The translations under genes and the position numbers were made by a program. Source: Octopus vulgaris (lineage: Eukaryota). From it: 64,000 nt of DNA. Positions 17,449-61,390 of this stretch are shown in pieces (positions within the stretch are counted from its first letter, which is position 1; each line of letters starts with the position of its first letter). Below the pieces are notes generated by a model, which did no database searches, was not told the DNA's origin, and saw only the letters and a list, made by a program, of their open reading frames with translations. The DNA lies in NCBI GenBank assembly GCA_951406725.2, contig OX597841.1, forward strand, positions 15,624,001 to 15,688,000, written 5' to 3'.

Positions 17449-17510
17449 CCCCTTCATCAGCTGTCCCTGGTTCGACTCAATACGTGTTTCGAAGGTAAGG
17501 GCAGAACACG
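17449..17510 (-). ncRNA. Non-circularly permuted hammerhead motif in a (TA)n-inserted element (~17322-17650)
   Basis: CGUGU-U-CUGCCCU-ua-CCUUC-GAA-ACACG-14nt-AGGGACAG-CUGAUGA-AGG; stem III 5 bp; stem I 7 bp with one bulge. Confidence 0.6.
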
Positions 17511-18054
17511 ACCCGGCCGAAGTAGTCCTCCCTGCAAAATGAATTAAATAAAATTATTTTGCAGAGGGGTAAAAAACAGTGACAAGAACAGGACGTAAAA
17601 GCAATACAAATAAATAAAAATACAGTACACATAAAGAATAAAAACCGGACATATATATATATATATGTGTGTGTGTGTATATGTATATATGTATGTATAC
17701 ATGCATGTTTGTATGTATGTATGTATGAATAGATGGATGGATAGTGGATGGAAGGATGTATGTATGTATGTATGTATGCGTACATACGTATGTATGTGTA
17801 TGTATGTATTATGGTTCACATATTTCTCAGCGTAATAAACATGGGTGTATATGTGTGTGTTTGCTTTCCATCCACCTGGTCCCGGGTTCAATCCGTGAGC
17901 GTGGGACTTGGTTAAATTTCATCTACTACTACTACTACTACTACTACTACTACTACTACTACTACACACACACACACACACACACACACACACACACACA
18001 AACACATGCGCAGGCATGGCTGTGTGGTAAGAACTTTGCTTTCCAACTACATGA

Positions 18055-18415
18055 GGGAGGGGACTAGTCGATTACATCGACCCCAGTGCGTAACTGGTAT
18101 TTATTTAATCGTCCCCGAAAGGATGAAAGGCAAAGTCGACCTCGACGGAATTTGAACTCAGAACGTAAAGACGGACGAAATACCTACTTCTTTACTACCC
18201 ACAAGGGGCTAAACACAGAGAAGACAAACAAGGACAGACAAAGAGATTAAGTCGATTATATCGACCCCAGTGCGTAACTGGTACTTATTTAATCGACCCC
18301 GAAAGGATGAAAGACAAAGTCGACCACGGCGGAGTTTGAACTCAGCACGTAACGGCAGACGAAATACCGCTAAGCATTTCACCCGGCGAGCTAACGACTC
18401 GGCCAGCTCGCCGAC
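18055..18415 (-). mobile_element. SINE S2, tandem/dimeric copy
   Basis: Two S2 cores with shared B-box GAGTTCAAA. Confidence 0.85.
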
Positions 18416-21318
18416 TTTAATAATGATAATAATAATAATAATGATGATGATGATGATGATGATGATGATGATGATAATGATGATGATGATGATAATAAGA
18501 TGAGACGATTAAAATACCTTTCATAATAAGTCCGCTGGAGCAGGGGTGACCTGGAGCTAAACTATAAGAACCATCATCATCACCATCATCATCAACACTA
18601 CCATCGCAGCTACCACCACAAAGACAACCACCACCACCACCACCATCCACCACCACCACCACCACCACCATCACCACCACTATCTGTCACTAATACGACC
18701 ACTTATGTAGGGGCAGAATGTAGGGGCTGAATGTAGGGGCTGAATGCGACAAGGGGCGCAGGGGGGGGGGAACCACCATTAATTAAAACAGAATGTAAGT
18801 ATGTGTGTGTGTATATATATATGTGTGTGTGTGTGTGTGTGTGTGTGTGTGTTTATATGTGTTTCTGTATATGTGAGCGTGCGCGTATGTTTATGTGTGT
18901 GTGTGTGAGTGTGTGTCATGGAAGGAAAGCCTAGCAGGTACTTAGCTGTGTAGATCGTAGAAGGGAGTAGGGGGTATGGACCCCCCCCCCCCCGGACACT
19001 AAGTAGGTTTATGGCCGTATGAGGTAGGGGTGGCGGAGCAGTGTGTGTGTGGGGGTGGTGCATGGTGGGGGGTGTAGCAGGGCGGCGGCGCGGTGGGGGC
19101 TGTTGAACAGGTGGAACACTGAGGATTATATTTTAAGGAGCCGGCAGGTGCTTCTGCGATGGGGTCCTTTTTTTTAATACACATTCACGCGCAGATACTA
19201 ACACACACACACACACACACACACACACACACATATGCATACATACATACATACATACATACATACGCAGAGTAACATATAAATACATACATACATATAC
19301 ATACATATACATACATACCCACATATATATATATACGCATACCCCTAGGTACATATATGCATAAATATACATGAACACATATGTATGTATATATGTATAT
19401 ATATACATAAATATATATATATATATATATATATATATATATATATATATATATATATATATAAGTAGTTGAATGAATTATCCTAGTATGGATAATTCGG
19501 TTAACCGATACCAGGGTAGCAAATTCACGTCAGAAAAACACGGTTGAAGCTACATGCCAAGGGCAGAGATCACGTGCAGCCCTTATTCCTTCGATATTAG
19601 GAATATGCAGTCTTCGAAACATATGTCGAGAATGAAGGAATTTTGTTAAATCGTCGTTCAACTCCATTCTTTCATTTATTTGTATATATATATATGTGTG
19701 TGTGTGTATATTTAGGGAGATGTACTTGCATAGCAAGTGACCTGATCTGAGATCGTGTGCTGGAACGAAAACAATTGCAGCGTGGAAGGTGTTTATTCCT
19801 TTATTTGTATCAGACATTTGACTGAGGCCATGCTGGAGCATAGCCTTTAGTCGAGCAAATCGACCCCAGAACTCATTCTTTGTTGTAAGCCTAGTAGTTA
19901 TTCTATCGGTCGCTTTAGCCGAACCGCTAAGTAATGGAGACGTAAATACACCACCATCGGTCGTCCAGTGAACACACACACGCACACATATATATCTTTA
20001 TATCTTTATGTATATATATATATATATATATATTATATATATATATATGTATATATATATATATATATATATATATATATATATATATATATATATATAT
20101 ATATATATATATATATATATATATATATATATATATATATATATATATATATATATATATATATAATATTTGAAGAGATTCTTTGAGATTTGTTCTACTA
20201 AATTCACCCATAAGGCTTTGGTCAGTGGGACTGAACCCGGAACCATGGGATTGGGAGACAAGCTTCTTACCACACAGCTACGCTTATTGTATGCACTCGT
20301 CACCGCCACCAGCACCCGTGCCCCCCCCCCCCATATATACCACAGCTCTGTATATATCCCTTTCCTCGCCGCCACCGCCACCACGCGCACACGCACGCCT
20401 CGCCGCCGCCTCAATTTCCAAGCCACCCAACATTTTCGGTTCATCAGCCTCAACCGAGGGTAGCTGGGTGGTGCAGGGGAGTGGAGTGTGACGCGGGGGG
20501 GTGGGGTGGGGGCCTATGGTGGCGGTGACAACAAAACAGGGACCCTAAAACCTTACGCGTGTCCTCGAATATCATCTATTATAGTTCCCTTCCACCACCT
20601 CCTCCTCCTCCTCTGCTTCCTCCTCCTCTGCTTCCTCCTCCTCCACTTCCTCCCCCTCCCTCATGTTTGTCTCCTTCCTCTCCTTCCTCTTCTGGCTCCT
20701 CTCGTCACGGATCGTTACCCACCATCGACCTAAAAAAGTAAAGGCGAAAACTGCCCATACTCTCTACACACCCGGCCCACATCCTCTCATATATGCATCC
20801 ACATGCAACATATATACGTACACATACGTAAATACATACATACATACATATATACATACATATACATATATATATATATATATATATATATATATATATA
20901 TATATATATACATATATATATATATATATATATATATATATATATATATATATATATATCTACATATATATATATATACATACATATATATATATACACA
21001 TATATTAGTATATATATATATTATATATACATATATACATATACAAGAATATATATAAATAGACAGATAGATACATACATACATTACATACATAGACATA
21101 TTTATGTGTGTTGTATATATATATATATATATATATATATATATATTTTTACCGTTATTGTTTTTACGTTTTTGTATTCTTATTGTTGTCACGTATTCTG
21201 TATTTTTGTTCGTGTACTTCGTTCGTTTTCCGTCCTCGCGTTGTATACATTCGAAGCTTTCTTCCAGGGGATCTAATGCACTTGGCTTAGATTTCCCGTG
21301 GCGGGCTGCCCATATCGG

Positions 21319-60763: not shown

Positions 60764-61050
60764 GTGGAGGCACATGGCCTAGTGGTTAGAGCAACGGACT
60801 CGCGATCGAGGGATCGCGGGTTCGAATCTCAGACCGGGCGATGTGTGTGTTTATGAGCGAAACACCTAAGCTCCACGCAGCTCCGACAGCAGTTAATGGC
60901 GAACTTCTGCTGACTCTTTCGCCACAAGGTTCTTCCACTCTTTCCTCCTGCATCTTGCAGCTCACCTGCGACAAATCGGCGGCCCGTCCAGGTGGGGAAC
61001 CTATACGCCAAGGAAACCAGGAAACCGGCCCTTATATTACGAGAAGGAAC
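60764..61050 (+). mobile_element. tRNA-headed SINE, S3-related subfamily
   Basis: A box TGGCCTAGTGG; B box GGTTCGAATCTC. Confidence 0.8.
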
Positions 61051-61333
61051 AAACAACAATCTACAAAAAAATAAAATATTTTGCATTTTATGCATAGCAA
61101 TCAGAGTAACCTTCATAATTTTATTGAATTGGGGGTATATTTTGGCATAAAAGGAAAATGTTGCTATCAATCTATTTTACTTATGATAGGCAGTGCCTAC
61201 TTTGCATTCCTAGGCGGCACGTCCCTGAAACACACCCTGTCAAGTGTCGAATATTGTTACTCTAGAAATCCTTTCGACGAACGCCATTTTCTAAACAGCA
61301 CTTATTTTAGTGCTGTTAATACCGTCGGATTGA

Positions 61334-61390
61334 ATAGTATTGCCCAGGTGTCGAAACTATGATGATATCAGTGTGGCAGCTGATGAGGTA
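61334..61390 (+). ncRNA. Non-circularly permuted hammerhead motif
   Basis: AUAGU-A-UUGCC-cagg-UGUC-GAA-ACUAU-14nt-GGCAG-CUGAUGA-GGUA; stems III, I and II are 5, 5 and 4 bp (some G.U). Confidence 0.6.

Follow-up and report, generated by a model that had tools for sequence, protein, structure and literature searches.

Repeats with a reversed hammerhead core and a predicted core-splitting junction in Octopus vulgaris, and their likely link to Naiad elements

Reversed-order motifs in the window

The window, which is the whole 64,000-nt stretch of Octopus vulgaris DNA that was analysed, contains repeats with a hammerhead core in reversed strand order, and we hold with reasonable confidence that these repeats, Naiad-derived or likely Naiad-dependent, encode RNAs predicted to cleave themselves, in which a four-way junction interrupts the core between A9 and G10.1 (Table 1). 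The order IIIb-U-H-Ia, GAAA-IIIa, Ib-CUGAUGA, described by a first-pass annotation, was found at 17454-17510 (-), 21319-21376 (+), 24484-24531 (+) and 61334-61386 (+). A strand-order descriptor requiring only a stem III of at least 5 bp and a stem I of at least 3 bp matched exactly four loci in the window (17454, 21319, 24484 and 61334), while the mean over 200 block-wise dinucleotide shuffles was 0.01 matches, with none in 198 of the 200. The four matched loci represent four separate repeat families, as had been supposed, with first-look candidates numbering 2954 (A), 1844 (B), 2288 (C) and 1482 (D). All four carry the core elements CUGANGA, GAAA and U-H, in a block order that is the reverse of the circular order of types I, II and III. 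No hammerhead family was present among the best 150 of 532 Rfam matches in the window, nor among the 22 matches returned at E<=1 for 12 loci.

A fifth locus, 38658-38705 (-), had been listed as a decayed member, and it is one, although of a separate family (F-type) and with a stem III register that had been placed one base off; its core is lost, and comparison with loci L330 and L356 suggests that the core heptamer and P0b were apparently deleted. The short family A element is 92-95% identical to other copies, its ribozyme having a single mismatched position in stem I and a single G-U pair in stem II, and the window copy of family C has an expanded G run in Pa. Nested folding, which cannot display crossing helices, gave z = -2.1 against shuffles for family A and -3.4 for family B, where P0 and Pa appear in both the MFE and centroid structures, and a stability not above shuffles (z 0.8) for family C.

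Table 1. Predicted ribozyme parts and repeat copies in the window
Feature	Position	Strand
Family A ribozyme, full predicted fold	17449..17569	-
Family A 5' helices	P0a 17569-17565; Pa 17564-17557 with 17539-17532; IIa 17531-17527; Xb 17521-17516	-
Family A cut-site block	IIIb 17510-17506; H17 17505; Ia 17504-17497	-
Family A GAAA block	IIb 17495-17491; GAA 17490-17488; IIIa 17487-17483; Xa 17476-17471	-
Family A core block	Ib 17468-17461; core 17460-17454; P0b 17453-17449	-
Family A predicted cut	between 17505 and 17504	-
Short family A element, no ORF, flanked by (TA)n runs	17315..17651	-
Family B ribozyme, predicted fold	21248..21392	+
Family B 5' helices	P0a 21248-21261; Pa 21264-21276 with 21287-21301; IIa 21304-21308	+
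Family B kink-turn-like elbow	GA 21318-21319; bulge 21350-21352; GA 21353-21354	+
Family B cut-site block	IIIb 21320-21324; H17 21325; Ia 21326-21331	+
Family B GAAA block	IIb 21337-21341; GAA 21342-21344; IIIa 21345-21349	+
Family B core block	Ib 21364-21369; core 21370-21376; P0b 21379-21392	+
Family B predicted cut	between 21325 and 21326	+
Young family B copy, 5'-truncated, between (TA)n runs	21147..21471	+
Family C ribozyme, predicted fold	24438..24535	+
Family C 5' helices	P0a 24438-24441; Pa 24442-24446 with 24453-24457; IIa 24466-24471; Xb 24472-24477	+
Family C cut-site block	IIIb 24484-24489; H17 24490; Ia 24491-24496	+
Family C GAAA block	IIb 24499-24504; GAA 24505-24507; IIIa 24508-24513	+
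Family C core block	Ib 24519-24524; core 24525-24531; P0b 24532-24535	+
Family C predicted cut	between 24490 and 24491	+
Second family C copy, inverted, 5'-truncated	24291..24402	-
Decayed family F-type ribozyme	38649..38772	-
Family F-type 5' helices	P0a 38772-38768; Pa 38767-38761 with 38737-38731; IIa 38730-38726	-
Family F-type cut-site block	IIIb 38707-38703; H17 38702; Ia 38701-38696	-
Family F-type remainder	IIb 38690-38686; GAA 38685-38683; IIIa 38682-38678; Ib 38661-38656	-
Family D ribozyme (Naiad 3' end), partly decayed	61294..61386	+
Family D 5' helices	P0a missing; Pa 61294-61301 with 61310-61317; IIa 61318-61323 (G10.1 mutated)	+
Family D cut-site block	IIIb 61334-61338; H17 61339; Ia 61340-61344	+
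Family D remainder	IIb 61347-61352; GAA 61353-61355; IIIa 61356-61360; Ib 61375-61379; core 61380-61386	+
Family D predicted cut	between 61339 and 61340	+
Naiad Penelope-like element, 3'-terminal fragment, ends at (TA)n	61293..61459	+

Stem II and the junction inside the core

The non-circularly permuted layout, described in the first-pass annotation as perhaps not new, does correspond to a published topology, type SGC (HRIMA-1 and variants; Eckert et al. 2023, PMC10085705), with the order cut site, GAAA, CUGANGA. Type SGC and the window motifs have in common this order, the crossing stems I, II and III, a short link between Ia and IIb and the full core consensus. They differ in that the 5' strand of stem II directly follows CUGANGA in type SGC, whereas in the window form it lies upstream of the cut site. 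Stem II had been assigned here, too, to the strands after CUGAUGA and before GAAA, and described as weak and irregular, but at least 2 direct-register pairs form in just 3 of 45 stem types; the partner was wrong, and a regular helix of 5-6 bp forms with the upstream strand. At least 5 Watson-Crick pairs join the pre-GAAA strand to that strand in 28 of the 45 stem types and in 11 of 11 metagenome types (swap null 11%). For these counts stems I and III were the sole filter, the upstream strand was chosen as the best-matching one within 50 nt, and the search pattern itself set C11.1 in part. The motif was also drawn too short, its real extent being about 95-145 nt with more helices upstream. With its strand lying upstream, stem II would be separated from the CUGANGA block, which PMC10085705 assumes to be uninterruptible, and the fold thus departs from plain type SGC.

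Among 24 family representatives, which like the families were picked by hand, the first stem II pair is G-C in all 24, the base after A9 is G in 5, and H17 is C in 11, A in 8 and U in 5. When 14 A/E/F copies are placed in an unfitted MAFFT alignment, the upstream stem II shows 97% pairing and both sides have changed in 3 of its 5 pairs, as they have in 4 of the 7 pairs of Pa; P0 is invariant inside this group, so its covariation rests on cross-family comparison. Stems I, II (with the upstream strand) and III flank the core with covariation and G10.1-C11.1. Sequence and covariation support the predicted stems I and III, the upstream stem II, Pa and, across families, P0.

It may be argued that an ordinary type SGC ribozyme is the active form, with stem II made by the post-CUGANGA strand, an extra base after A9, and IIa, Pa and P0 acting as an inhibitory switch fold. 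Type SGC cleaves in vitro (PMC10085705), known hammerheads tolerate an extra base at the A9/G10.1 step (PMC3705267, PMC4209133), and in the A/E/F copies the post-A9 strand, with one base skipped, can pair with IIb over 4 pairs (94.6% of cells paired; C11.1-G in 14 of 14 rows). However, this offset helix is mostly G-U with 1 pair changed on both sides, it is absent in families B, C and D and in 10 of the 11 metagenome types, where the best run downstream comes to 0-2 pairs (3 pairs in the remaining type), and the upstream pairing persists in both B and its sister family B2 though their downstream strand differs. We regard this explanation as unlikely and retain the upstream stem II.

On our structural model, the likely role of P0 and Pa is to create, between A9 and G10.1, a four-way junction, which places the fold outside the six published block orders. 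The extra base that known hammerheads tolerate at this step (PMC3705267, PMC4209133) favours this model as well. The P0/Pa junction is flush in 9 of the 24 representatives (swap null 3.2%, shuffle null 0.4%) and has gaps of up to 2 nt in 13 (nulls 11.9% and 3.7%), leaving 11 that fail the strict test even when 2-nt gaps, as in family B, are allowed; this strict score replaced a loose-gap score with nulls of 42% and 26%. Type SGC has an extra helix joining stems I and II (PMC10085705), whereas P0/Pa sit at A9/G10.1 in the window form, where P0 would take the post-core strand and the distal ends of stems I and II would meet helix X. A candidate kink-turn motif with a 3-nt bulge and both helices was recognised from sequence in B, B2, B3, B4 and D; it is looser in 6 more representatives and absent in 13 of the 24.

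Relationship with Naiad elements

A Penelope-like origin had been suggested for the diverged (TA)n-associated families, and a parent, Naiad, can be named for one of the five loci (61334), where the fragment corresponds to the published Naiad_Obim and Naiad_Ovul consensus sequences at their 3' ends; for the other four we infer the same parent, and families A, B, C and F likely depend on Naiad. All five loci have a (TA)n target plus tandem or inverted truncated copies, as Naiads do (Craig et al. 2021, PMC8557442). Relatives also share with Naiads an N-terminal GIY-YIG combined with a C-terminal RT, and the relative P0002 has an N-terminal GIY-YIG, a CxC linker and a DKA motif. Naiad copies examined in this genome are broken, and the reading of them covered RT pieces. 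In family D the published Naiad match goes with an RT gene that lies upstream of the motif and in its orientation: of 30 loci with an RT match, 11 carry a family D motif downstream on the same strand and none carries one on the opposite strand, and 20 weaker RT matches yielded 3 divergent D-type motifs, all sense, and no A, B or C motif. A search for RT at 90 loci of families A, B and C, extended by 1.5 kb on each flank, gave no match, nor did the window.

Among 74 Naiad-like loci from other sources, 14 carry the split-core form on the sense strand and none on the antisense strand. Behind another 6 Naiad-like ORFs, all sense and in one clade according to a quick tree, we found type CSG with an intact CUGANGA block; inspection by eye showed this form also among the nematode entries of the supplement, in 3 of the published Naiad consensus sequences. 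Type CSG, known from two metagenome sequences (PMC10085705), has the same reversed cyclic order, but it opens the circle at a helix end, whereas the window form opens it inside the core; none of the five window loci has the CSG form. The descriptor matched nothing at 54 of the 74 loci, and Rfam found no hammerhead in 20 of these 54. One large clade of 27 loci is without a descriptor match, thus Naiads can spread without the motif. No Naiad relatives were found in viral contigs. The accessible portion of PMC8557442 reports no canonical hammerhead in Naiads and leaves 'HHR_core' (10) and 'HHR_half_core' (8) cases unexplained, several of which are accounted for by permuted folds.

Copy number and 5' ends

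Genome-wide, the GAAA-before-CUGANGA pattern occurs 37,539 times, compared with 4,796 for a reversed control, leaving about 33,000 matches above control. An evenly spaced sample of 40 x 10 kb (400 kb) gave 0 SGC-order matches, and 2 type I-like matches at the loosest setting; this zero is a poor fit to the genome-wide frequency, roughly one pattern match in 75 kb, but decayed copies escape the strict descriptor, and motif density in the window clearly exceeds the average. Chance pairings multiplied by repeat copying, without ribozyme function, would agree with such patchy density and with a copy number that mirrors transposition rather than per-copy selection. Yet they would not give compensatory changes in five helices across families sharing little sequence, nor a motif that is sense-only behind Naiad ORFs on unrelated contigs, and the descriptor counts against shuffles, the strand bias at the 74 loci and the stem II pairing counts already contradict this explanation, which we consider very improbable.

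Truncated copies that start after (TA)n begin at the predicted cut in 95 cases, compared with 15 copies starting 10 nt upstream and 21 about 27 nt downstream, a peak judged against these two control sites only. At the assignable loci (65 of 86 sampled), 14 copies begin between 0 and +15 and 1 between -20 and -2, and the inverted family C copy starts no more than 3 nt from the predicted cut. Stalling of the reverse transcriptase in a stable fold could contribute to the peak.

Kink-turn motifs are protein-binding elements, and their putative presence in the elbow, together with the tandem arrangement of family B and the spread of the 27-locus clade without the motif, would suit a real fold that depends on a dimer or a protein, or that is kept chiefly so that the Naiad protein can bind it, the RNA by itself cutting little or not at all; other Penelope-like hammerheads do cut poorly, as dimers (PMC4209133). 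We give this a small probability, as core bases and U-H are conserved across distant elements, a monomer could form with stems of 5-6 bp, and the predicted cut is where the starts of solo truncated copies peak. The reversed layout of the window repeats, judged from its sequence, likely cuts.

Discussion

We lean towards a broader reading, which we think probable: an active topology outside the six block orders, opened within its core and caged by an elbow, would be the missing ribozyme of Naiads from ctenophores, cnidarians and acanthocephalans to cephalopods, numbering tens of thousands of copies here, with its cut recorded in the 5' ends of those that were inserted. The strands would follow in the order P0a, Pa hairpin, IIa, Xb, IIIb-U-H-Ia, IIb-GAAA-IIIa, Xa, Ib-CUGANGA and P0b. 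As in other hammerheads, stem II would stack on the sheared G12-A9 pair, while P0 would stack on Pa. Stem III would bend back through an elbow, putatively the kink-turn motif in several families here and, elsewhere, a bulge or a side hairpin; the bend would bring its far end to those of stems I and II, in place of a loop I-loop II contact. A cut after H17 would set the 5' end of the template that the Naiad reverse transcriptase copies into (TA)n and, as in retrozymes, would free unit-length RNA from tandem copies. Since transcription reaches the core and P0b last, and helices II, III, X and P0 would hold the products together, cutting is expected to be late and release slow.

According to the accessible portion of PMC10085705, type SGC is found solely in metatranscriptomes, with none in any known organism's genome other than one GCS candidate, and the words 'Octopus' and 'Naiad' each occur 0 times in its supplement. 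The split-core reversed form is undescribed in the text of the openly accessible papers that we searched. If our reading is true, non-circularly permuted ribozymes, so far environmental RNA of unknown origin, would gain a known host and a biological role, the stated puzzle of hammerhead-less Naiads would be answered, and the premise of an unsplittable CUGANGA block would be overturned. Standard descriptors would also be overlooking ribozymes by the tens of thousands in a single animal genome, and a hammerhead whose ends leave through the core, with products still paired, would offer a new engineering scaffold.

The position of the ribozyme near the 3' end of the element is shared with the type I hammerheads of Penelope, Poseidon and Neptune and with non-LTR retrozymes (PMC4209133; bioRxiv 10.64898/2026.07.22.740005). 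In contrast to the circular order, weak stem III and dimer cleavage of type I motifs in Penelope-like elements and retrozymes (PMC4209133), the window form is reversed, has long stems and is predicted to act as a monomer. Family B resembles retrozymes in being made of non-coding tandem units with a hammerhead motif in each, short and non-autonomous as in non-LTR retrozymes (bioRxiv 10.64898/2026.07.22.740005), but its hammerhead order is reversed relative to retrozyme type I. Elsewhere in the genome its units lie head to tail at 777-785 nt (15 of 30 loci, some of them overlapping), and its 40 best matches show 100% identity across 161 nt. At the family C locus, the two copies form an inverted truncated pair, an arrangement typical of Penelope-like insertions.

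Strand order and abundance of the motif

A descriptor with the order cut site, GAAA, CUGANGA, at least five pairs in stem III and at least three in stem I matched the window four times, at the four intact loci, versus a mean of 0.01 in 200 shuffles, bearing out the reversed-order layout of the first-pass annotation. The fifth locus is decayed as described there, and its core appears to have been lost through deletion. Simple repeats are plentiful in the window. Every locus is a single member of a repeat family, and each family has some 1,500-3,000 first-look candidates in a genome of 2.8 Gb and 227 contigs. 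GAAA 16-30 nt ahead of CUGANGA was found 37,539 times genome-wide versus 4,796 in the reversed control, and the ordinary hammerhead order 53,185 times versus 10,110, thus both are abundant. No strict reversed-order match occurred in 400 kb sampled from the genome at even spacing, so the window is richer than the genome average.

The sections of Eckert et al. 2023 (PMC10085705) used here assign the block order GAAA then CUGANGA after the cut site to type SGC, with in vitro cleavage at 0.007-0.19 per minute and metatranscriptomes as the only source, and type CSG to two sequences only; their six-order scheme presumes that CUGANGA and its adjoining paired strands are unsplit. While an unbroken CUGANGA-stem II block defines type SGC, this block is split in the window form. 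Because the unbroken block is absent, the window form is filed as a reversed hammerhead opened inside its core, a variant apart from SGC. Judged from sequence, the predicted ribozyme would work like a hammerhead with SGC block order, putatively as a monomer.

Stem II forms with an upstream strand

The first-pass annotation had paired the strand before GAAA with that after CUGAUGA, but this direct downstream register gave two or more pairs in only 3 of 45 stem types. The strand before GAAA finds its complement upstream, 19-45 nt from the cut site. The 45 types came from 192 cores selected by stems I and III only, stem II not being a filter, after removal of types with a simple-repeat upstream part. 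At least five upstream Watson-Crick pairs were found in 28 of them (strand-swap null 11%), including all 11 types from outside contigs; the 17 types lacking a match were all from the octopus genome, mostly single decayed copies. The first pair was G-C in all 24 hand-picked representatives, and the next four positions showed 3-5 pair types each. An offset downstream stem II can possibly form in the A/E/F group, and its four pairs, mostly G-U, count against the upstream reading. On the other side, when 14 copies from this group were aligned by MAFFT, with no fitting to structure, a covariation check had a positive outcome for upstream stem II, which was 97% paired with three of five pairs altered on both sides.

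Junction helices and elbow

Hairpin Pa terminates directly at G10.1, and helix P0 pairs the strand after A9 with that immediately before Pa. With gaps disallowed, the P0/Pa junction formed in 9 of the 24 representatives (swap null 3.2%, shuffle null 0.4%); allowing up to 2 nt of gaps raised this to 13 (11.9% and 3.7%). For family B, the minimum-energy and centroid folds both contain a 14-bp P0 together with a long Pa, with 2-nt gaps at the junction. By eye, the arrangement was also recognized in ten of the published Naiad consensuses (one each for Beroe, Pomphorhynchus and the Clytia, Morbakka and arthropod parts of the file, three for Acropora and two for Octopus), passages from part of the 54-consensus set being compared. 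Beyond an elbow, stem III is continued by a second helix, X, which at its far end adjoins the far ends of stems I and II. Of the 24 representatives, five, all from the octopus genome, have an elbow that matches a kink-turn, six more match it loosely and 13 do not; P0 with its four-way junction and the elbow are supported less firmly than helices I, II, III and Pa. Known four-way junctions offer a model for coaxial stacking, and by analogy P0 would stack on Pa, and stem II on the core. A single extra base at the A9/G10.1 step is described in the relevant parts of two papers for a viroid hammerhead and Penelope minimal hammerheads (PMC3705267, PMC4209133).

Association with Naiad elements

The passages of Craig et al. 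2021 (PMC8557442) used here give (TA)n as the Naiad insertion target and describe Naiads without canonical hammerheads, some with a 'half core'; our literature search returned no paper linking type SGC hammerheads with Naiads. The 3' ends of Naiad_Obim and Naiad_Ovul are matched by locus 61334, of family D, in which stem III has a compensatory change. Upstream of family D copies, remnants of reverse transcriptase (RT) are present. The motif lay downstream of the RT match on the same strand at 11 of 30 loci and on the opposite strand at none. Naiad domain order is present in a related protein, P0002. Alignment of 34 of at least 120 relatives led to 104 fetched loci, 74 with at least 300 nt past the ORF match. 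Behind these ORFs stood the opened form at 14 loci (two duplicate pairs among them) and type CSG at six, all sense and none antisense. Type I, II or III hammerheads were found at none of the 74, and 54 had no match of any searched form; by eye, one further opened form and three further CSG forms were recognized among these 54.

In a quick tree built on 78 RT rows, CSG loci (L392, L393, L433, L440, L445 and L446, each 3' of the ORF) all fell in one clade, and opened-form loci shared two other clades with octopus-genome copies. A 27-row clade (e.g. L412, L415, L417, L425) had no hammerhead match, no core being seen in tails up to 3 kb, nor any Rfam match in 20 loci scanned; these elements may depend on an RNA element of another kind. 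Within the nematode part of the file, a published Naiad has a CSG form with a single additional base after A9, which may represent an intermediate. A ubiquitin carboxyl-terminal hydrolase domain (PF00443) follows GIY-YIG and RT in about 30 of at least 120 Naiad-type proteins, confirmed for P0048. Naiad-like ORFs within bacterial and archaeal MAG assemblies (L444-L467) are probably eukaryotic contamination.

Families A, B, C and E to G appear to be non-autonomous, and no RT was found within 1.5 kb at 90 A, B and C loci. Since fold, target and arrangement are in common, we infer that these families rely on Naiad proteins. Family B is young and is arranged in tandem, at 777-785 nt per unit. Among the first 100 ordinary-order matches listed for G000 is a very common hammerhead family that shares its stem II sequence with permuted family B and has one extra base after A9; the identity reflects either shared ancestry or coincidence.

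Truncated copies and predicted cleavage

Cleavage after H17 would set template ends and make many inserted copies start there. Among 86 loci sampled, 65 were family-assignable; relative to the predicted cut, 14 copies started at 0 to +15, one at -20 to -2, two at -40 to -21, seven at -80 to -41, and 41 extended further. Genome-wide, 95 B-type copies right after (TA)n started at the predicted cut, versus 15 and 21 at control sites 10 nt upstream and about 27 nt downstream, and target microhomology was greater at both control sites than at the predicted cut. Such starts may also come from reverse transcriptase stalling within the fold.

ARAGORN returned no tRNA in the window; the tRNA-like head adjoining the family C insertion probably belongs to a SINE.

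Coordinates of loci and other features (window positions unless stated)
Feature	Position	Strand	Observation
Family A	17454	-	intact
Family B	21319	+	intact
Family C	24484	+	intact
Family D	61334	+	intact
F-type	38658	-	decayed
Inverted copy	24291-24402		start at most 3 nt from predicted cut
tRNA-like head	24633-24700		adjoins family C insertion
G000	C1:155266-2994691		span of first 100 ordinary-order matches, with the family sharing stem II with family B among them
L007, GC-richer stretch	1280-1360 of L007		GNRA-type hairpin, 5' part of 780-nt family B unit; no Rfam match
P0048, PF00443	969-1252 of protein		C-terminal, E 2e-29
Inverted repeat	28247-28335		perfect, arms about 40 bp
Telomere hexamers	24064-24107		about seven animal-type copies, internal site
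Tandem duplication	24975-25708		period 384 nt, recent
Tandem duplication	34785-35246		period 175 nt, recent
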